64,000 nt of DNA from an uncultured Candidatus Saccharibacteria bacterium (lineage in GTDB: Bacteria > Patescibacteriota > Minisyncoccia > SW-4-49-11). Below are positions 3,023 through 57,755 of this stretch, in pieces. The translations under genes and the position numbers were made by a program. The number at the start of each line of letters is the position of its first letter. The stretch's first letter is position 1. Where the stretch lies: positions 20,711 to 84,710 of the forward strand of contig CAZWIJ010000007.1 of the NCBI GenBank assembly GCA_964633865.1. Reading direction: 5' to 3'. Below the pieces are notes generated by a model. That model was not told where the DNA came from. It saw nothing but the letters and a program-made list of their open reading frames with translations, and made no database searches.

Positions 3023-3832
3023 TTAGATATATAAAGAGTTGTCTAAACATCTTATCATTGTAGGATAAATAAATAGACTAAGGAAATAATTACAATCTAA
3101 TTTTCTACTAAAATTTTCAATTAAATTCATTACCTCATTTGTATATTTATAATCTGGACTTGCAAAAACAAAGAACCATGTATATATCATAGCAACAAAA
3201 GGTGATTCAACTACATTAATCCCTAGTTGAGGGTCAATAAATAAAAATTTATCATCTTTATTTATTAAAATATTGCCAAAATGAAAGTCACCATGTTCTT
3301 CTATTACTTTTATTGATTCAGGTGGATTACTTAAAAGATTAGAAACTTCTTCGATTAAAGGATATTCGCAACTATATGTTTCAGACAACTTATTCAAAAC
3401 TTTTATCCCCATTTCCCAAGGATTTCTGTTTAAAATTGTAAAATTTTGTGAAACAATCTTTCTTTGATTTATCCAATTTACTAAAAATTCTAGGTATTCT
3501 TATAAATACATCAAACCCCTTTTGGGGTTGTTGATTAATATTTCTCCTAAAGAAATTCCTCCATCTTCAATAAATATAAGTCTCTCATTGAGTAAAGGAA
3601 CACTAATAAATTTAGGTGTTTCTAAACCTATCTGATTTAGTCTTTTTAATCCAATATGTTCAATTCGAGATGGTTTATTTATGCCTATTTCTAAACCAGA
3701 ATATTTTATATATAACCCCCCAAATTTGAATACACATTCATTAATTTTCTCTATTTTCATGCTAAACCTCTCACGATAAGGATAACTATCAAAATGTACT
3801 ATCATAAAATAATTTATGATTACAGAATTCAT
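3023..3832 (-). pseudogene. APH/choline-kinase-like phosphotransferase interrupted by one in-frame TAA (at 3500..3502).
   Basis: ORFs 3500..3832 and 3023..3412 are in the same frame. The 87 nt between them contain no other stop. The C-terminal part carries the kinase motif HGDFHFGNILI...FIDPQLG. Confidence 0.6.
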
Positions 3833-3988
3833 TATATCATATTTTTATATTATTAATTAAAGTTTTTTTCACTTAAAATTTATATTTTTGTAGATTGAAT
3901 CATTAAATTCAACAAGAAGATTATTAACCTAAATTTAAATTTGTTGTGTTTATATAGTGTCTAAACATATTTTTTGAATTTTTTCATA

Positions 3989-8996: not shown

Positions 8997-9776
8997 TTAT
9001 CTATCTCTTTCTTTTTTAGAAATAGCTAAAGTACCATAAGTCATAAAAACTATAATCATTACTACTATAATTAAAACATCAATCCAAATAGGAAAAATTG
9101 TTATAAACTCCTTAACCTCAGGAGTATTCCTATAAAAAGCATTTCTAAACAAATCCACAACATAAGTTAATGGAACTAATCTAGATGGAATCAATAAATA
9201 TAAAGGTAAATCTTTTATAGGAGTAAAGACACCTGCTAAGAAAAACTGAGGAAATATAAATAAAGGAAAGACTCTATTGATATTTTGACTATCATCTGCA
9301 AATGAAATAATTAATAATCCAAAAGCTCCTCCTAAAATCGTAACCAATATAATAATTGGAATAAATATAAGAATATCCATAAATGAATATGTAACTCCAA
9401 TTAATAATCCTATTAATAAAATCATTAAACCCTGTATAAATCCTACAAATCCTTCTCCAATAATTTTACCGATTAAAATTGATACTCTAGCTATCGGTGC
9501 TACAAAAAACTCTTGTGTTAAATCTTGTTCCCTATCTTGAACCAAAGAGATTATACCCTGAGCCACAGTCTGAAAAATAGTTTGTCCCAAAACTCCCACA
9601 AAGGTAAATATCATAAAGTCATAAGGAGTCTGTACATTTGCCTTAAAGCTTCCTCCTAAAACAACTATAAAAATTACTGGAAAAATAAGTGATATCAAAA
9701 CTCTACTTGGATTTTTGATATATTTTGTAATATCCCTGTAGGCAATAGCCGAAATAGCATTGATTTGATTTGTCAT
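8997..9776 (-). CDS. ABC-2 type transporter permease.
   Basis: Six TM segments, located immediately downstream of the ABC ATPase, typical operon arrangement. Confidence 0.65.
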   Translation of the reverse strand: MTNQINAISAIAYRDITKYIKNPSRVLISLIFPVIFIVVLGGSFKANVQTPYDFMIFTFVGVLGQTIFQTVAQGIISLVQDREQDLTQEFFVAPIARVSILIGKIIGEGFVGFIQGLMILLIGLLIGVTYSFMDILIFIPIIILVTILGGAFGLLIISFADDSQNINRVFPLFIFPQFFLAGVFTPIKDLPLYLLIPSRLVPLTYVVDLFRNAFYRNTPEVKEFITIFPIWIDVLIIVVMIIVFMTYGTLAISKKERDR

Positions 9777-9787
9777 ATAAGTTATAT

Positions 9788-10726
9788 TTAAGATAATAAT
9801 TTAAGGTAAGCTTCTTCTAAAGTTGGTTTTATAATGGATACATCAGATATTTCTGTATCTATCATTTTTATATATTTTTGTACAGTCCAGCTTTTATTAA
9901 TATCTAAAGCCACAGAATTTTCTTTAGATAAATCTTCTATAATATTAATCTTTTTATCTTGTAATTCTTTCTTTAGTTTATCTATATATTTAGTTGTCAA
10001 AATAACATAATCATTCAACAAAGTCTTCTTTATTCCCTCTGGTGTATCATTCAAAATAATTTTTCCATGATTAATAATAGCAACTTGATCAGCTTGTTCA
10101 GCTTCTTCTAAATAGTGAGTTGTAAGAAAGATTGTCAAATTAGTTTCTTTTCTTAAATTATTAAGATACTCCCAAATTGATTTTCGACTAACGGGATCGA
10201 GTCCAGTAGTTGGCTCATCCAAGAATAAAATTTTAGGTTCATGTATCAGACTTCTTATAATTTCTAGTTTTCTTTTCATACCACCAGAATAAGTCTTTAC
10301 TTTTTTATGTAAAAAGTCTTTCATATCAATCAAATCAATCAATTCTTCTACTTTTTGTTTGTAATCTTCTGACATTAATGAATATGTTGGTCTAAAACTA
10401 TAAACACCATATAGTGCAGAGTGAATTCTAATATTTTCCTCACCAGTTAAGTTCTCATCTAAAGATGGTTTTTGTGCTATAATACCGATGTCTTTTCTTA
10501 TTTTGGCAGGATACTTATCTATATTTCTTTTATTTATAATGATATCTCCTGAAGTTTTTGCTAAAGTTGTTGTCAAGATAGATATTGTGGTTGTTTTCCC
10601 AGCTCCATTCTCTCCCAAAAAAGCAAAAAAACTACCTTCCTTAACATTAAAAGAAATATTATCAACCGAATTTTTATCCGCTTTTTTATATTTTTTGACT
10701 AGATTTTTAACTTGAATAATATTCAT
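9788..10726 (-). CDS. ABC transporter ATP-binding protein.
   Basis: Walker A GENGAGKTTT, ABC signature YSGGMKRKL, Walker B LFLDEPTTGLD and H-loop TTHYL. Confidence 0.9.
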   Translation of the reverse strand: MNIIQVKNLVKKYKKADKNSVDNISFNVKEGSFFAFLGENGAGKTTTISILTTTLAKTSGDIIINKRNIDKYPAKIRKDIGIIAQKPSLDENLTGEENIRIHSALYGVYSFRPTYSLMSEDYKQKVEELIDLIDMKDFLHKKVKTYSGGMKRKLEIIRSLIHEPKILFLDEPTTGLDPVSRKSIWEYLNNLRKETNLTIFLTTHYLEEAEQADQVAIINHGKIILNDTPEGIKKTLLNDYVILTTKYIDKLKKELQDKKINIIEDLSKENSVALDINKSWTVQKYIKMIDTEISDVSIIKPTLEEAYLKLLS

Positions 10727-51094: not shown

Positions 51095-51571
51095 ATGTTA
51101 ATAAAGTCTGTATCTGATAAAGATTTGGCTATACTTGAACACATTGCTTTTGATATACTAGAACCTTTATATGGTGATCAATCTAAATCTCTGTATGAAT
51201 GGGTTTCTGGTGAAGGTTTTAAATATGCTTTTCTTTCTAAATCTGGAGAGGGAGAATATCAAGGATTTATAAGTCTAAAAATTAATCCTTTAAAAGATTA
51301 TGTTAAAATTTCAACCTTCTTTGTCCTACCAAATTTTCGAGGAAATGGTATAGGTAAGAGATTACTTGAGTTTGTCTTTAAATATGTAGTAGATTTAGGT
51401 AAATATAAATATCTAAAAGTTACTATATCGGAAGATAACCCTGAATCATTAGCATTTTTTCAGAAAAATAATTTTGTTTTAACGGACAAAATAGATGGTA
51501 AGTATAAACATAATAAAACTGAATTTATCTTATATAAGGAGATTATTAATGAAAAAGATATTAGGTATTAA
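51095..51571 (+). CDS. GNAT family N-acetyltransferase.
   Basis: Motif A RGNGIGKRLLEFV. Confidence 0.65.
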   Translation: MLIKSVSDKDLAILEHIAFDILEPLYGDQSKSLYEWVSGEGFKYAFLSKSGEGEYQGFISLKINPLKDYVKISTFFVLPNFRGNGIGKRLLEFVFKYVVDLGKYKYLKVTISEDNPESLAFFQKNNFVLTDKIDGKYKHNKTEFILYKEIINEKDIRY

Positions 51572-51878
51572 AAAGAAATACTTCTTTGATATAAAGAACA
51601 ATCTAAAGAAATTAGAGGCAAGATGTAATTATTCTAGTTTATCCAGGCTTAATGTTGGTGATGAAATTGAATTTCAATACCAACAAGAAGTTTGTGTAAA
51701 AATTATAAAAGATATCCGTATCTATCATTCAATTGAAGATATGTTAAATAAAGAGAATATAACAAGTCTTTTACCAGGTGTTAACTCCCTTATAGATGCT
51801 TTAAAAATTTATAGTTCAATATATTCAGAAATGAAAGTTAAGAAAAATGGAGGAATGATTGTATTTGAACTTGTTTAG
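51549..51878 (+). CDS. ASCH (PUA-like) domain protein. Start placed at the internal Met (MKKILGIKKKYF).
   Basis: An ASCH-like GIKKKYFFDIKNNLKKLEAR core; it overlaps the GNAT stop by 23 nt. Confidence 0.45.
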   Translation: MKKILGIKKKYFFDIKNNLKKLEARCNYSSLSRLNVGDEIEFQYQQEVCVKIIKDIRIYHSIEDMLNKENITSLLPGVNSLIDALKIYSSIYSEMKVKKNGGMIVFELV

Positions 51879-51951
51879 GATTTAAAAATTTGTTATAATA
51901 GCTGTAGAGATTGAATCAAATCTCTATTTTTATTTAAATATTAAATAATAT

Positions 51952-52290
51952 ATGAAAAAAATTGAATTTAATGTAAAGGAACCATATTTAAATTTCATTA
52001 AATTAGGAAAGAAGACAATTGAAGGGAGATTAAATAAAGGAAAATTCAAGGACATACAAATAGGAGATATACTAATTCTTTCAGATGGTTCTAAAATGGA
52101 ATTTATTGTTATAGGTAAAAGGTCATATTCCTCTTTTTCAGAAATGTTAATTAAAGAAAATATAAAAAATATTATTCCAGACAAGAATGATTTAGAAGAA
52201 GCCACACAAGTTTATTATAAGTTTTATACTCCCGAGCAAGAAAATAAATTTGGTGTTGTAGCTATAGAGATAAAATTAAAGGAAATATAA
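51952..52290 (+). CDS. ASCH domain protein (second, tandem).
   Basis: MKKIEFNVKEPYLNFIKLGKKTIEGRLNKGK...IGDILIL, the canonical ASCH N-terminal pattern. Confidence 0.5.
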   Translation: MKKIEFNVKEPYLNFIKLGKKTIEGRLNKGKFKDIQIGDILILSDGSKMEFIVIGKRSYSSFSEMLIKENIKNIIPDKNDLEEATQVYYKFYTPEQENKFGVVAIEIKLKEI

Positions 52291-52316: not shown

Positions 52317-53834
52317 TTAACTCTTTTCTCTATATTGCAAAGCTTCAGCTATATGATTTACTTTGATATCAGGATTTTCTTCTAAATCTGCTATTGTACG
52401 AGCTAATTTTAGAATTCTATTATAGGCTCTTGCAGATAAATTCATTTTAGTAATAGCATTTTTGATTAATTTCTCAGAAGGTTCGTCTAGGATACAAATC
52501 TTTTGAATTTGTTTTACATTCATTTCACTGTTGGTCTTGATTTTATAATTTTTGAATCTTTCTCTCTGAATTTCTCTGGCTTTTTCTACACGATTTCTGA
52601 TTTGAATTGAAGGTTCTTCATTTATTTCTTTAGACATTAATTCTTCTGTTTTAACCTTTTCTATTTGAATAATCATATCAATTCTATCAAGTAGAGGACC
52701 AGAAATTTTTTGCTGATATTTGATTATCTGATTTTGGGAACAAGTACACTCTTTGTCTGGGTCTGTTGCATATCCACATGGGCAAGGATTTTGGCTTGCA
52801 ATAAGCATAAAGTCAGCTGGGAATGTGATAGAACCTTGAGCTCTTGACACAGTTACAATCCGGTCTTCTAATGGTTGTCTTAAACTTTCTAAAACAAATC
52901 TAGGGAATTCTGGGAATTCATCCAAAAATAAAACACCTCTATGAGCCAAACTAATTTCTCCTGGTTTGGGGTAAGAACCTCCACCAATAAGAGAAGTTGA
53001 AGAGGCTGTATGATGAGGTGAGCGGAATGGGCGAGTGGTAATAAGTGGATTTTCAGCATTCAATTTGCCTGAAATACTGTAGATTTTAGAAACATCAAGA
53101 ATTTCTTCTCTGTCCATTGCAGGTAAAATAGTTGTGAGAGTTCTTGATAAAAGAGTTTTCCCTGCTCCAGGTGGCCCTGTCATCAAAACATTATGTCCAC
53201 CGGATGCAGCTATCTCTAGAGCTCTTTTTGCTAATTTCTGGCCTTTGATATTTGACATATCTATATCATTTGGAAGATATGATGATTTTATTTCAAAAGG
53301 TTTGGTAGGAGATATAATAAATTTTTTATTTGGATTAAAATGATCAATAATTTCTTGAATATTTCTTACTCCTAAAATTTCTATCCCATCTACCAATGAA
53401 GCTTCATTATCATTATCAATAGGGATAATTATTTTGGGTATGCCTATATTTTTAGCATAAATTGTGATAGGTAATACACCTTGTATAGCTCTAATATCAC
53501 CATTTAGTCCAATTTCACCTAAGATGATATAGTCCTGATGATCAAATTCAATCTCATTAAGAGCTTTCATAATAGCCATTGCCATCGGTAAATCATAACC
53601 TGTTCCAATTTTTTTTACTTCGGCTGGTGCTAGATTTAGAATAAACCTTTTTTGGGGAAGAGATATACCAGAATTCTTAAGCCCAATACGGATTCTTTCT
53701 TTGGATTCATTAACAGCAGTATCAGGCAGTCCAACAATAGTTATTCCAGGAAGACCCTGACTAGTATCTACTTCTATCTGAATTAGTTGCCCTTCTAGTC
53801 CATAAATTGTTGCAGACTGTACGACTGATAACAT
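52317..53834 (-). CDS. comM: YifB/ComM family Mg-chelatase-like AAA+ ATPase.
   Basis: N-terminal MLSVVQSATIYGLEG...VEVD, Walker A GPPGAGKT and a C-terminal ChlI domain. Confidence 0.9.
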   Translation of the reverse strand: MLSVVQSATIYGLEGQLIQIEVDTSQGLPGITIVGLPDTAVNESKERIRIGLKNSGISLPQKRFILNLAPAEVKKIGTGYDLPMAMAIMKALNEIEFDHQDYIILGEIGLNGDIRAIQGVLPITIYAKNIGIPKIIIPIDNDNEASLVDGIEILGVRNIQEIIDHFNPNKKFIISPTKPFEIKSSYLPNDIDMSNIKGQKLAKRALEIAASGGHNVLMTGPPGAGKTLLSRTLTTILPAMDREEILDVSKIYSISGKLNAENPLITTRPFRSPHHTASSTSLIGGGSYPKPGEISLAHRGVLFLDEFPEFPRFVLESLRQPLEDRIVTVSRAQGSITFPADFMLIASQNPCPCGYATDPDKECTCSQNQIIKYQQKISGPLLDRIDMIIQIEKVKTEELMSKEINEEPSIQIRNRVEKAREIQRERFKNYKIKTNSEMNVKQIQKICILDEPSEKLIKNAITKMNLSARAYNRILKLARTIADLEENPDIKVNHIAEALQYREKS

Positions 53835-54050
53835 ATATTTAAACTTAATTTTATAAGTATTTTATCATAATTTTAGTTTTTTGTAAAAAAAAGAGGGTGG
53901 TTGGAAAAGGACTAGATGTTTTTGGATACTTGATAAATACTAGAAAAACCTTATTAAAAGTGGTATGATGGATATAATGTAAAGTTAGTTTTTAAAGAAG
54001 GGAAATATGGATAATAAAATTATAAAACAACTGATTGAAAGAGTAAATAT

Positions 54051-55154
54051 ATGATAAATAAAACATATTTTGATTTAACTAATCCAGAAAACAATATTCT
54101 TGATCTTTTAATAAGACAAAAAGATAATTTTGATTGCAATATAATTGATAAACAAGGTTTAGTTTACGAAGGGTTTAAATTAGCTAAAAGCGAACAAGGG
54201 AATAATTTTACAGTTTGTGATATAAGCTTTAAACAATCAACAACAGATCAAAAGTATCAGGCAAGATTAGTTTTTCGCAAAACTGATAAAAACTTTAAAG
54301 ATAGAAATGTTAGTAAAGGTAGTGATTTTGTAAGAATACCCTTTGATATAGGACAAAATGGATATAGAGAATTTTGGAAGATGATCTCCTTTCTTTACAA
54401 ATGGAAAGAAACGATTGATTTAGGTGAATTCGACGATTTTTTTGCTATAACAGAAAAAAGTTTAGCTGATATTTTGCCCCAAATATCAAGTTTAAGTAAT
54501 AAAGAGCTTGTTTTAACTAATCTTAAAAAATTGACTAAAGAAAATTTAGATAATATTGATAATTTAGTAAATATAACAAAACTAAAAAATGTACTTAATG
54601 AGTTCATATAAAATAAAGAAAACAATCAAGAAATTGAATTTTGGCAACCATTTTTAAAAAAATATTTTTGGATAATTCAACAGATTTTTTCTTCTCCTGT
54701 AAATTTATACGATAATGAGTTTTATGTTGGTGGGTTATCTCAAGGGAATAGAAAAGGTGGTAAATTTGTTGATTTTGTAGTAAGAGATATAATATCAAAA
54801 AACATTTCTATTATTGAAATAAAAACTCCTAAAAAGCAATTGGTATCAAAGATTGAATATGATAAAAGAAAAGGTATTTATTCAATGCATAAGGATTTAA
54901 TAGGTGCAATTTCTCAGGTATTAAATCAAAAAGACCAAATACAGAAGGATTTTAAATATGATAATAATGGAAAAGATTATATAGTACTTGATCCAAAATG
55001 TATTTTAATTATAGGAAATAAAGAAGAAATGAATGAAGATCAAAATTCATGTTTTGAATTATTTAGAAAAAATCAAAAGAATATTGATATTATTACTTTT
55101 GACGAACTTTTCAAAAGGATTGAATCTATTTTAGAAATATTTAAGAATGAGTAA
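54051..55154 (+). pseudogene. Shedu-like (DUF4263, PD-(D/E)xK nuclease) defense gene interrupted by a single in-frame TAA at 54609..54611.
   Basis: ORFs 54051..54611 and 54840..55154 share a frame and the 228 nt between them are stop-free. Read-through gives ...EFWQPFLKKYFWIIQQIF...GGKFVDFVVRDIISKNISIIEIKTPKK... (a D...EIK nuclease core) and a C-terminal ...IDIITFDELF. The family assignment is from memory of DUF4263. Confidence 0.45.
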
Positions 55155-55175
55155 TTATATCAACTATCAAATATT

Positions 55176-55451
55176 ATGAAAACCCAACTTATGGAACAAG
55201 AACCTATGAAAAAATACTCAACAATTAGCAATTTTCCAGGTAAAAAACGGAGTATTAGAACTTATTCCAAAATGGAACTAGTTCAAAATGAATCAGGAAG
55301 AATCATAAAAAGACAAGTAGATTATTATAATCTTGATATGCTTATTTCTGTTGGATATAGAATAAGTTCTCTAAAAGGTACAAAACTCCGTAAATAGGCA
55401 ATCCAAATTCTAAAAGAGTATATTACAAAAGGGTTTACCATTCTTCAATAA
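55176..55451 (+). pseudogene. RhuM-family (virulence protein RhuM-like) N-terminal remnant, truncated with an in-frame TAG at 55395.
   Basis: ...KRSIRTY..ELVQNESGRIIKRQVDYYNLDMLISVGYRISS.KGT.LRK*AIQILKEYITKGFTILQ* matches the RhuM hallmark (YYNLD.IISVGYRV.S...FR.WAT.ILKEY..KGF). Full-length RhuM is ~330 aa. Confidence 0.55.
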
Positions 55452-55703
55452 AAACAACAACAGATACTTTAAGAAAGAATATGAACTAATAACAAAAGAA
55501 TAAGGGTTTTAGATGCTTTTTTAATCACCAATAACCCCTATTCTACAAAAATATATTAATCTCTTAATATCAAACTATTAAATCTTGCAATAGAACTTTT
55601 TATTTAAAGGTGATAACATTATATATATAACTTGTGAAAGATATTGGAATATCACATCTTATAGTGTTAATTCTAATTATAAGCAATAATAAAATTTATC
55701 ACT

Positions 55704-55970
55704 ATGAAAGAATATAAATTTTGCCAAAGTTGTGGCTACCCTCTAGATCAAGATAAAAAGGGGGGAGGAACAGAAAAAGATGGTTCTAAAAGTAAAAAAT
55801 ACTGTTCTATGTGTTATCTAAATGGAGAGTTCTTAAGTCCATCAGAAGTTGATACTGCTGAGAAGATGCAGAAATTTTGTATACAAGAGATGAAAAAAGA
55901 TGGTATGAACGGTATTTTGGCATGGGTATTAACCCGTTCCATTCCAAAACTTGAGCGATGGAAAAAATAA
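55704..55970 (+). CDS. Small zinc-ribbon protein (CxxC...CxxC).
   Basis: CQSCGYPL...CSMCYLNGEF. Confidence 0.45.
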   Translation: MKEYKFCQSCGYPLDQDKKGGGTEKDGSKSKKYCSMCYLNGEFLSPSEVDTAEKMQKFCIQEMKKDGMNGILAWVLTRSIPKLERWKK

Positions 55971-56000
55971 TATTTATAATGGAATAAAGAGACTAAGTAT

Positions 56001-56414
56001 ATGCTAAAAACAATTACAATCTGTGGTTCAATGAAGTTTTTCAATGAAATCAAATAACTAAAGATGCATTTGGAAAGTTTAGGATTTGAAGTACTAATTC
56101 CCTCCGAAGAAGGTACTGAAATTGATTATACAAAGCTAACTAAAGCAGAGCAATCAGATCTAAAACAAAATTTTATTGATCAACATATTGATAAAATTAA
56201 AAAGTCAGATGCTATTTTGTTAGCTAATTATCCAAAGAACAATGTGCAAAATTATATAGGAGCAAATACTTTTTTAGAAATGGCATTTGCTTATATATTA
56301 AGAAAACCAATTTTTATTCTGAATAATATTCCTGAGCAATCCAATACAGTTGAGATTGAAGGGTTAAAACCAATTGTTCTAAATGGTGACCTGAATTATC
56401 TCACTCAGTTATAA
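56001..56414 (+). pseudogene. Nucleoside 2-deoxyribosyltransferase-like (NDT-fold) gene interrupted by an in-frame TAA at 56055..56057.
   Basis: MLKTITICGSMKFFNEIK*TKMHLESLGFEV... in one frame. The ICGSM N-terminal motif and ...IGANTFLEMAFAY (catalytic Glu context) are typical of the NDT-like family. Confidence 0.45.
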
Positions 56415-56500
56415 TAAATCTGGTATAAAAGGAAGTTATTTTGTTTTTAAAAAAATAGTTAGAAATAACCTGAAAAAGATGAGAAACATCTAGAACAAAG

Positions 56501-56612
56501 TTGACAATCAATATATTCTTAAATATAATATAAAAGTAAACATTTGAGGGAAATTTTATGAAATTTACTACATGGTGCTAAGATAACAAATTTCAATAAG
56601 GAGGTAATAATA
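56501..56612 (+). ncRNA. Tiny transcription unit: consensus promoter, a 7-codon micro-ORF (MKFTTWC) and a terminator.
   Basis: TTGACA (56501..56506), 17-nt spacer, TATAAT (56524..56529). RBS GAGGG, ATG at 56558 and TAA at 56579. Hairpin AAGGAG-N10-CTCCTT plus T7 at about 56595..56628. Confidence 0.3.
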
Positions 56613-56618
56613 TCTCCT

Positions 56619-57755
56619 TTATTTTTTTATTCTCAAATTTGTCACTAAATTACCCATAAAAATAAAGAAGAACATTCCAGATAAAATACCACCTATAATA
56701 TCTAGGTAAGGGACTGTTTCCATTAATAAGAATAAAGTATATATTCCAAGTGCCATCAAATAGATTTGGATCTTAGCTACTCCTAGCTTTAGTTTTATAT
56801 TTAATAAGTTAGATAAATATAGTGAGGTTATACTCTGAGATATAAATAAGATTATTAGATATAAAGCTAAAATTATTGCTCCTAGAGGGAATCCTAAAAT
56901 TGTTACCATCAAAGATATAGAAACAACAGGAATTAATATTATCAAAAAGAATCCTAAAAAGAAATTTTCTATATATTTTGTATTTGAATTTAGAGATTCT
57001 AGATTCTTTTCAATTTTTTTAGTAAACAATAAGTGTAATACTATTATTATTGTAGAAGCCCAAATAATTCTTAATACTAACAATCCTGAGATATTTAGTA
57101 AATTATTTTTTTCAGGTTCAAGTTCTTTTATTTTTAAACTATTATCTAGTGTTAAGTTAGATTCTAAATTAGTAGGTATTTGAGAATTTTCTGCCCAATA
57201 TTTTGTTCCTTTATTTATATTAGCATTATCAGATATTTCCAAGTTAGCTGATACAAGTTGGTTGTTTTCTCCATTTAAATTTCCATTTACAATTATATTC
57301 TCAGCTTTTAGATTTGTATTCCCTAAAATTGTCCCATCTATATTTATATTTTTAGCATAGATTAATGTATCTCCAGTAATTTCTGCATCATTTTCTATTG
57401 TGATTGTTTCTCCAAATATTATGGTTTCTCCATTGATTTTACTTGAGATTTTTATATCTTGCCCTGCAATTCTTAAATCTTCACCAATATTGGCATTGGT
57501 CTCTATAAATTGTCCAGCTAAATTTATGTCTTTTGTAATTTCTCCCTTGACATCAATATATTGTCCAGCTATAAATAAATCTCCATTAACTTTTGTATCA
57601 AAATCTATTTTTTCTCCTGCCAAATAAGTATTTCCTTCTATATCATCATTTATCTTAAATTCTTCGTCAGCTTTGAAAAAAGAAGCATAAGTTATATTAA
57701 TTCCAAGCATAAAAATTAATAAAGTGGCAATGATTTTATAAGTATAAGTTTTCAT
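56619..57755 (-). CDS. Bactofilin-domain (polymer-forming cytoskeletal, DUF583-like) protein with an N-terminal signal/TM segment and C-terminal TM region.
   Basis: Repeated beta-helix units (GDLFIAGQYIDVKGEI / INLAGQFIETNANIGEDLRIAGQDIKISSKINGETII). Confidence 0.55.
   Translation of the reverse strand: MKTYTYKIIATLLIFMLGINITYASFFKADEEFKINDDIEGNTYLAGEKIDFDTKVNGDLFIAGQYIDVKGEITKDINLAGQFIETNANIGEDLRIAGQDIKISSKINGETIIFGETITIENDAEITGDTLIYAKNINIDGTILGNTNLKAENIIVNGNLNGENNQLVSANLEISDNANINKGTKYWAENSQIPTNLESNLTLDNSLKIKELEPEKNNLLNISGLLVLRIIWASTIIIVLHLLFTKKIEKNLESLNSNTKYIENFFLGFFLIILIPVVSISLMVTILGFPLGAIILALYLIILFISQSITSLYLSNLLNIKLKLGVAKIQIYLMALGIYTLFLLMETVPYLDIIGGILSGMFFFIFMGNLVTNLRIKK

Follow-up and report, generated by a model that had tools for sequence, protein, structure and literature searches.

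Background

Type III restriction-modification (R-M) operons encode Mod, which methylates host DNA, and Res, which cuts unmethylated invader DNA. Intact SduA of the Shedu system forms a PD-(D/E)xK nuclease tetramer that inhibits itself until infection activates it, and intact RhuM is a proposed toxin-type effector. In published neighbourhood surveys, 602 of 5,499 Shedu genes (~11%) lie within R-M systems (bioRxiv 10.1101/2023.08.10.552793), and RhuM-like genes, proposed to be toxin-type, occur in R-M loci as well (Anantharaman et al. 2013, PMC3710099). Shedu and RhuM embedded in R-M operons are already documented, and the locus described here, from an uncultivated low-GC groundwater bacterium (genome GC 26%), is an ordinary relic of this known kind that reveals no new mechanism or system.

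The closest intact SduA that we found (P0001, 367 aa, 63% identical over its full length) sits in L101, a tightly packed mod-sduA-rhuM-res operon from an organism of a different kind, with a Trp operon, cytochromes and 32.5% GC. Other SduA homologs are found in a mod-sduA-res arrangement or beside hsdS. We rejected SduA and RhuM as a conserved pair, since the two genes are adjacent in L101 only and lie 2.2 kb apart in L112 and L113. In the window, i.e. the whole stretch of 64,000 nucleotides that was analysed, sduA is directly followed by rhuM and this by res, an arrangement that agrees with L101 in gene order and strand. Set against L101 and the canonical mod-res operon L189, however, it is without mod, and only 23 codons of res and a central fragment of rhuM are left, so that no restriction or methylation machinery remains in the cassette.

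Results

The initial annotation had viewed the interval from comM to the bactofilin gene as a single decaying island with a Shedu-like nuclease, a RhuM remnant and an NDT-like gene as cargo, each broken by an in-frame stop. All coordinates of the three interrupted frames and their stops were verified (Table 1).

Table 1 Features of the locus (positions in the window)
Feature	Position	Strand	Remarks
comM/YifB Mg-chelatase-like ATPase	52317..53834	-	intact; left native flank; Pfam Mg_chelatase 310 bits
Lineage-specific insert, probable relic of an acquired defence cassette	53906..55590	.	~1.65 kb; orthologous site of L183 without insert
Shedu sduA, predicted pseudogene	54051..55154	+	367 codons; interrupted once, by TAA at 54609-54611 (codon 187) in the linker that precedes the nuclease domain
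rhuM fragment	55176..55451	+	TAG at 55395-55397; frame ends 18 codons later
Deletion junction	55431..55435	+	GGGTT microhomology, present in the K-G-F codons of rhuM and in the I-G-F codons of res
Type III restriction endonuclease (res) tail	55432..55503	+	last 23 codons and stop; +1 frame relative to rhuM
Zn_ribbon_2 gene	55704..55970	+	intact, 88 aa, native; Pfam PF12674 79.7 bits
NDT-like gene, native, predicted pseudogene	56001..56417	+	TAA at 56055-56057 (codon 19)
Bactofilin-repeat membrane protein	56619..57755	-	intact; right native flank; Pfam Bactofilin 28.0 bits (cut-off 27.9)

A comM search of GTDB species genomes for the orthologous locus gave a best match of 54% identity and no close genome, and the informative relative, L183, was reached via a search for homologs of the NDT-like protein. 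Its comM ortholog is 94% identical in amino acid and 86% in nucleotide sequence, and its bactofilin-repeat protein is 60% identical in amino acid sequence. By blastn, window positions 52318-53905 correspond to 7964-9553 of L183 and 55591-56471 to 9591-10469; with the alignment of the intergenic regions, 37 bp are found in L183 where the window carries the insert, whose left edge is imprecise by ~50 bp (53906-53950). In L183, the genes that directly follow comM are the zinc-ribbon gene and the NDT-like gene, the latter intact at 137 aa; sduA and rhuM are both absent, and the presence/absence polymorphism among relatives holds for ~53906-55590 only. The empty site agrees with the earlier view of sduA and rhuM as decaying acquired defence cargo, but not with an island spanning the entire interval. 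In another related lineage (L185-L188), an intact res lies immediately upstream of the zinc-ribbon and NDT-like genes; the L185-lineage contigs break off within res, and the genes upstream of it lie beyond them. The site exists in three states: empty in L183, with res intact in L185, and as a relic in the window. No integrase or transposase, tRNA target, flanking repeats or deviant GC were found at the insert, and its edges showed no target-site duplications or inverted repeats. The plasmid collection that was searched gave nuclease-domain matches only, at no more than 41% identity, and the four island proteins had 0 matches in NCBIfam.

The RhuM homology is confined to 55281-55439, corresponding to RhuM residues ~90-131 of 343 (tblastn with the L101 and L112 RhuM proteins) and to residues 36-88 of the open reading frame, a stretch of 53 residues with the TAG inside, while full-length RhuM proteins have ~330-345 aa. 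The read-through translation scores 65.6 bits against Pfam Virulence_RhuM (PF13310, cut-off 33.7), over model positions 2-62 of 252 only, and its PADLOC matches are PDC-S05 and PDC-S23. The hallmark block of the family (YYNLDxxISVGYR...FRxWA...LKEY..KGF) is present and the R-M neighbourhood is alike, but only ~53 of ~340 residues are left, the N-terminal part and ~212 C-terminal codons being missing, and the TAG stands where FRxWA has its conserved W (TGG to TAG). The description of the damage as point nonsense alone is therefore wrong for rhuM: the stops are real, but this gene was also cut by a ~3.3 kb deletion and by the loss of its N-terminal part.

The same description had overlooked what the cargo was part of, as the res tail identifies the remnant of a Type III R-M operon. 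The peptide of this tail (GLPFFNKNNNRYFKKEYELITKE, followed by the stop) is identical at 20 of 23 residues to the C-terminus of the intact L185 res (GFPFFNKNNNTYFKKQYELITKE, also followed by the stop) and at 12 of 23 to the L101 Res tail, a range from 52% (L101) to 87% (L185); the helicase (ResIII) and endonuclease domains are absent. DNA homology to L185 begins exactly at 55432, inside the microhomology, and the sequence lost at the junction runs from the 3' part of rhuM through res codons 1 to ~891. For mod, tblastn of the L101 Mod protein against the 64-kb window gave 0 matches, and no tail of Mod or of another gene was found in 53835-54050 by tblastn, by three-frame comparison with Mod C-termini or by tblastx against the DNA that lies upstream at 18 SduA loci.

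The zinc-ribbon gene is syntenic in L183 and L185-L188 and its product has 5 amino acid differences from the L183 ortholog. Because both this gene and the NDT-like gene are syntenic beside comM in L183, the pair can be taken as native and the decay of the NDT-like gene as independent of the insert. The NDT assignment itself is borderline, with 26.6 bits for the read-through translation against Pfam Nuc_deoxyrib_tr (PF05014, cut-off 28.8), and the intact ortholog P0122 also falls below the cut-off (25.6 bits); many NDT-like homologs carry precomputed Pfam hits. These small proteins of 135-137 aa, related to PF05014, are widespread in Patescibacteria. The window gene is like them in its length of 137 codons and in having both ITICGS and NTFLEMAFA, and differs in its nonsense codon; its intact orthologs occupy the same chromosomal position. 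In the two close intact 137-aa orthologs, P0122 (91% identical) and P0121 (90%), codon 19 is GAA (Glu); the ancestral codon was GAA and is now TAA. The stop divides the family-invariant ITICGS motif from the remainder of the protein. The NDT-like gene thus counts as a pseudogene that arose independently and lies outside the defence cargo.

It is accordingly improbable that the interval from comM to bactofilin is one accessory defence or mobile island with three cargo genes each eroded by point nonsense. The three stops and the family matches on which that reading was built are real, and sduA and rhuM were acquired, but the zinc-ribbon and NDT-like genes stand beside comM in a relative that has neither sduA nor rhuM, an NDT-like gene was found near SduA in 0 of 80 loci, deletions truncate rhuM beyond its stop, and the signatures of an island (integrase, tRNA, repeats, GC) are absent.

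The family assignments of sduA, rhuM and the zinc-ribbon gene were confirmed. The read-through translation of sduA scores 87.8 bits against Pfam SduA_C (PF14082, DUF4263; cut-off 27), 228 bits against the PADLOC SduA model and 158.8 bits against Bacillus cereus SduA (PDB 8TI8). It has the nuclease domain and the D...E-x-K core in common with B. cereus Shedu, and the catalytic residues D241, E256 and K258 are retained and align with those of the B. cereus protein, the catalytic E being the residue changed to A in PDB 8TI9. Length and architecture are those of intact SduA relatives of 360-370 aa, and the read-through is no more deviant than intact homologs: of 90 highly conserved columns, 6 differ in it, compared to 2-10 in the latter. 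The N-terminal domain (~residues 1-135) is subfamily-specific and lies outside Pfam, the best PADLOC model and the solved structures. Unlike known Shedu, however, the window gene has a TAA between the N-terminal regulatory domain and the nuclease domain, so that a single uninterrupted frame linking them is absent; homologs have K/E at the position of the stop. There is no in-frame ATG, GTG or TTG between the stop and the catalytic residues, and the next, a TTG at 54840, is downstream of all three. The nuclease domain would be untranslatable and, as far as the sequence predicts, no catalytic SduA product can be made. The NCBI entry for the 186-aa fragment is a hypothetical protein.

No intact SduA more than 63% identical was found among 5.8 billion proteins, and a metagenome scan with an SduA alignment yielded 80 loci, 0 of them from the lineage of the window. 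The suggestion that intact Shedu defence exists in this lineage finds no counterpart in these searches, the closest intact SduA belonging to a different kind of organism and the related lineage having yielded an intact res only. Two further candidates were rejected: P0371, a 181-aa variant from a contig with 2x coverage whose sequence looks chimeric, and P0016, a contig-end partial SduA beside a Type IIG-like enzyme and no close relative.

We consider it quite unlikely that the truncated products have been kept because they still work, be it the N-terminal domain of SduA, 186 aa long, as a protein on its own or the NDT-like frame of 116 aa that starts at M22 (56064). Both frames are called by gene callers in every assembly and the island is invariant across samples, but a clonal population accounts for the invariance, and the 116-aa product is without the invariant ITICGS. 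No stand-alone family of the SduA N-terminal domain turned up; P0016, P0044 and P0045 are short hits, but contig-end or partial ones. The substitutions in the NDT-like gene point the same way, with 6 non-synonymous or nonsense changes to ~1 synonymous on the window branch compared to 13:15 on the other two branches, although this is suggestive only (Fisher P 0.10).

The interrupted frames are not due to chance: with 8.1% of the trinucleotides in the window being stops, 180 open codons have a probability of ~3e-7, and the longest open segment across 20 shuffles was 147 codons. Over positions 53700-56750, at least 15 independent metagenome contigs, built with different assemblers from separate samples of JGI and ENA, show 100% identity, and thus the stops are not sequencing errors; this evidence is at the contig level, and the contigs represent what is in essence a single clonal population (identity of at least 99.9%), in which minority intact alleles are possible at the read level. 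A single SNV, in one replicate contig, lies outside the stops.

That the stops are read through or recoded, by a suppressor tRNA, an alternative code or programmed read-through, and the genes functional, is very hard to sustain. Four in-frame stops with no frameshifts within 64 kb and the perfectly conserved SduA read-through could be cited for it. Against this, TAA, TAG and TGA all terminate intact genes (39, 9 and 5 of 53 intact open reading frames, respectively), which rules out an alternative genetic code, and the interrupted genes themselves finish with TAA. Moreover, the stops are of two different kinds and have no sequence context in common, the window holds 0 suppressor tRNAs, and orthologs have GAA at the NDT-like stop site. 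With the RhuM homology down to 53 residues, and with both res and mod deleted, the system is physically dismantled anyway. As for sequencing or assembly artefacts, the contigs are AT-rich and of low coverage (~4-5x in some), but with at least 15 identical contigs across samples, sequencing centres and assemblers (SPAdes, MEGAHIT, JGI) this explanation can be set aside with near certainty.

Where the ancestor can be deduced by alignment, the stops are nonsense changes of the GC-to-AT type, in line with the AT-biased mutation proposed earlier: GAA to TAA in the NDT-like gene (two orthologs), TGG to TAG in rhuM, and a K/E position in sduA. Such decay is not special to the locus: a native kinase-like gene at 3023-3832, 50 kb away, is likewise split by a TAA, and with this fourth nonsense-split gene the decay extends beyond the island.

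Discussion

The interpretation that we favour, with high confidence, is that of two unrelated decays, one of a dismantled acquired mod-sduA-rhuM-res cassette and the other of native genes. It can be hypothesized that an ancestor gained a Type III R-M operon with embedded sduA and rhuM, which would have entered the spacer between comM and the native zinc-ribbon/NDT-like pair. The order mod-sduA-rhuM-res is proposed by analogy with L101, because no mod remnant lies upstream of sduA, and we infer the former presence of mod and the order of the events. A deletion of ~3.3 kb at the GGGTT microhomology removed the 3' two-thirds of rhuM together with all of res except its last 23 codons, the 5' part of rhuM is missing as well, and mod would have been lost without trace. 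The rhuM remnant acquired the TGG to TAG change, and sduA, otherwise perfectly preserved, its single linker TAA, probably a recent lesion. In a separate event, a G-to-T nonsense mutation converted codon 19 of the native NDT-like gene, and with the split native gene 50 kb away this agrees with a general background of gene loss driven by GC-to-AT nonsense in a 26% GC genome. The interrupted genes have presumably lost their function.

A more adventurous extension, to which we give a small chance, is that the three lineages record a defence cassette at one site through its entire life cycle and that, together with the two native genes killed by TAA, a low-GC, probably episymbiotic lineage could be losing genes of defence and metabolism to GC-to-AT nonsense, caught very early; in a bolder variant, the 186-aa SduA N-terminal domain would have been co-opted as a stand-alone protein.

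The interrupted open reading frames deserve annotation as pseudogenes. On the reading that we prefer, the locus is a clean and datable example of an R-M operon with embedded Shedu and RhuM being dismantled, through a microhomology deletion, the disappearance of mod and, after these, a nonsense point mutation in the accessory gene that was left, with both an earlier state and the empty state preserved in related lineages.

Interrupted frames between comM and the bactofilin gene

Reading of this region and translation of its frames reproduced exactly the three stop-broken frames, those of sduA, rhuM and an NDT-like (nucleoside 2-deoxyribosyltransferase-like) gene, that had been described in the initial annotation. 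Stop trinucleotides make up 8.1% of the window, which has a GC content of 26%; at that frequency the probability of a 180-codon open run is ~3e-7, and the longest open segment over 20 shuffles was 147 codons.

Features of the window, and its alignment blocks with the orthologous contig L183 of a related genome
Feature	Position	Strand	State
Split kinase-fold (APH-like) gene	3023-3832	-	~245-265 codons; in-frame TAA at 3500-3502
sduA frame	54051-55154	+	367 codons; single TAA at 54609-54611
rhuM piece	55176-55451	+	TAG at 55395-55397; frame end 18 codons further on
Zinc-ribbon gene	55704-55970		Intact, 88 aa
NDT-like frame	56001-56417	+	TAA at 56055-56057 (codon 19)
Block, L183 7964-9553	52318-53905		86% identity (blastn)
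Block, L183 9591-10469	55591-56471		94% identity (blastn)
Remaining flanks			76-80% identity (blastn)

Among Pfam models, SduA_C scored 87.8 bits on the sduA read-through (the translation ignoring the in-frame stop; cut-off 27), Virulence_RhuM 65.6 bits on the rhuM piece (cut-off 33.7; model positions 2-62 of 252 only), Zn_ribbon_2 79.7 bits on the zinc-ribbon gene, and Nuc_deoxyrib_tr 26.6 bits on the NDT-like read-through, slightly below its cut-off of 28.8. PADLOC scored SduA at 228 bits and, for the rhuM piece, gave matches to two candidate systems, PDC-S05 and PDC-S23.

Exact-protein look-up of comM and the zinc-ribbon gene found ~20 replicate contigs; their samples, from JGI and ENA, were separate and their assemblers differed. 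At least 15 of them are 100% identical over 53700-56750, with a lone SNV at 55248 in one replicate, which rules out the stops as sequencing errors; because the replicates share at least 99.9% identity across 20 kb and thus represent one nearly clonal population, this replication is silent on older divergence. Recoding of the stops is likewise ruled out, since TAA, TAG and TGA all end intact ORFs (39, 9 and 5 of 53) and the only tRNAs in the window are tRNA-Leu(taa) and tRNA-Ser(gct). The stop-broken genes themselves terminate with TAA, and the standard genetic code is in use.

The sduA stop falls in the linker ahead of the nuclease domain, at an alignment column that varies between K and E, consistent with a change of AAA or GAA to TAA. 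Beyond it, the catalytic residues of B. cereus SduA have their counterparts in D241, E256 and K258; the E is the one mutated in PDB 8TI9. Of 90 columns that hardly vary across 16 close homologs, 6 differ in the read-through, as compared to 2-10 in the intact homologs; the nonsense mutation is thus recent. The first in-frame start past the stop, a TTG at 54840, lies 3' of all three catalytic residues, and judged from the sequence a nuclease product would be impossible without read-through. The N-terminal domain (residues 1-135, 54051-54455) is well conserved in the subfamily, particularly in the stretches CDxxFxKSxTDxKYQARLxFRK and GYREFWKMIxFLYKW; it has no Pfam model and no match in solved Shedu structures or plasmid Shedu genes, and may be an uncharacterised sensor domain. 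In the rhuM piece, homology is confined to residues 36-88 of the ORF, which means that the N-terminal part has been lost too; the TAG takes the place of the Trp conserved in FRxWA, implying a change from TGG.

Native genes and the extent of the insert

The intact 137-aa homologs of the NDT-like read-through are P0122 (91% identity) and P0121 (90%). P0122 lies on L183, a 52-kb contig in the order L27, comM, Zn_ribbon_2, NDT-like (intact), a 140-aa gene, a bactofilin-like gene, M23 peptidase and NrdD/NrdG. From the alignment blocks, the lineage-specific part is therefore only ~53906-55590 (left edge uncertain by ~50 bp), standing where L183 has 37 bp. The proposal of one island reaching from comM to the bactofilin gene thus does not hold: the zinc-ribbon and NDT-like genes are native and syntenic in a genome without the insert, and are not its cargo. 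The NDT-like family is common in Patescibacteria as proteins of 133-145 aa, and none of 80 SduA loci had such a gene nearby.

Codon 19 of the NDT-like gene is GAA in L183 and in L185, from a second related lineage, and TAA in the window (G to T at 56055), where it divides the family-invariant ITICGS motif from the remainder of the protein. The window branch has accumulated the nonsense and 5 amino-acid replacements for ~1 synonymous change, compared to 13:15 on the other two branches, a contrast that is suggestive only (Fisher P 0.10).

The zinc-ribbon/NDT-like segment, with its upstream spacer, is closer to L183 than comM is (94% against 86%), which suggests either recent inter-lineage recombination there or unusually strong constraint. 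Downstream, 56472-56628 spans 150 bp where L183 carries the 140-aa gene, predicted to be secreted and Gly/Cys-rich. It holds a sigma-70 promoter of perfect consensus (TTGACA-17-TATAAT, 56501-56529), an RBS with a 7-codon ORF (MKFTTWC, then stop; 56559-56582) and a terminator-like hairpin (56598-56619), and is either a stump left by deletion of that gene or a putative small transcript. On the other side of comM, 51095-52290 encodes a GNAT acetyltransferase and two ASCH-domain proteins, and the counterpart in L183 (7076-7897) an unrelated 273-aa membrane protein; with differing content on each side, both flanks of comM are variable spots. The best matches of comM itself are ~54% identical, mostly from Patescibacteria/CPR genomes and also from Chloroflexota and others.

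Origin of the insert

The closest intact SduA, P0001 (63% identity, exactly 367 aa, E 2e-146), is encoded at L101 in a tightly packed operon of Type III Mod (700 aa), SduA (367 aa), RhuM (343 aa) and Type III Res (913 aa). When these four proteins were aligned to the window by tblastn, SduA matched full-length, RhuM residues 92-129 matched 55323-55436, and Res residues 892-911 matched 55432-55491. The +1 frame at 55432-55503 reads GLPFFNKNNNRYFKKEYELITKE and then a stop, and the L101 Res ends in GLPFFNKDHNLMFEKQYKNILN. The second NDT-like relative is decisive: in the lineage of L185-L188, an intact Type III res lies immediately upstream of the Zn_ribbon/NDT-like pair; its product (at least 897 aa on the contig, 71.5% identical to the L101 Res) ends in GFPFFNKNNNTYFKKQYELITKE, 20/23 identical to the window tail, and at the DNA level the window and L185 are homologous (90.8%) from exactly 55432 onward. 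At the junction, GGGTT is common to rhuM (AAAGGGTTT, K-G-F) and res (ATTGGGTTC, I-G-F), which argues for a microhomology-mediated deletion of ~3.3 kb that would have taken RhuM residues ~132-343 and Res residues 1 to ~891. Neither the stretch upstream of sduA nor the rest of the window shows any remnant of mod, whose former presence we infer. A 15-codon ORF at 54007-54054 (+; MDNKIIKQLIERVNI), which ends by overlapping the start codon of sduA as ATGA, resembles the translationally coupled tail of an upstream gene; it matches neither Mod nor other upstream genes of the examined SduA loci.

What remains at the locus is a dismantled Type III R-M cassette in which Shedu and RhuM genes were embedded: sduA is a pseudogene, rhuM a fragment, and of res only the tail survives. 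The cassette was inserted between comM and a pair of native genes, one of which has independently become a pseudogene; in related lineages the site is found with res intact, and empty.

Decay elsewhere and related systems

A scan of the window for long open segments joined by one stop flagged 3023-3844 (-), with two ORFs (110 and 129 aa) in which the APH/kinase-like motif HGDFHFGNILIN occurs. Homologs of 256-270 aa (P0373-P0375) each cover the two halves colinearly as one protein: the N-terminal ORF matches P0373 residues 1-76 and the post-stop segment, including 28 codons 5' of its ATG, residues 90-237. This gene brings the nonsense-split genes to four among ~60 and lies 50 kb from the insert, so decay is not limited to the comM-bactofilin locus in this host, an uncultivated bacterium of 26% GC. 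The initial annotation was sound as observation and its interpretation stands in part, the supposed single island being a dismantled cassette beside an independently decayed native gene.

The locus holds no new kind of system. Shedu genes are embedded in Type I-IV R-M systems in 602/5,499 cases (Gu et al., bioRxiv 10.1101/2023.08.10.552793), and RhuM-like genes, proposed toxins, occur in R-M loci (Anantharaman et al. 2013, PMC3710099); the ancestral arrangement is therefore of a known kind. SduA homologs of the same subfamily lie in the order mod-sduA-res (L130, L132, L125), next to hsdS (L102, L105, L106, L108, L109, L172) or, in one case, 3' of a Type IIG-like enzyme. At L112/L113 a RhuM gene precedes SduA, 2.2 kb away and in the same orientation, and L102/L192 carry RadC, a 793-aa HSDR_N_2/N6_Mtase/Eco57I enzyme, SduA and HsdS; these loci suggest repeated capture of the subfamily by differing R-M types. 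For the Res family (6,588 matches below 1e-100) the canonical operon is mod-res (L189), and identity reaches 87% in Bacteroidota, Campylobacterota, Cloacimonadota and Magasanikbacteria. Its members (L185:1-2694, L189, L190, P0241-P0360) are unusually conserved across far-apart phyla, with 75-87% amino-acid identity among Bacteroidota, Campylobacterota, Cloacimonadota, Thermotogota and CPR, and this conservation and spread point to frequent, very recent horizontal transfer.
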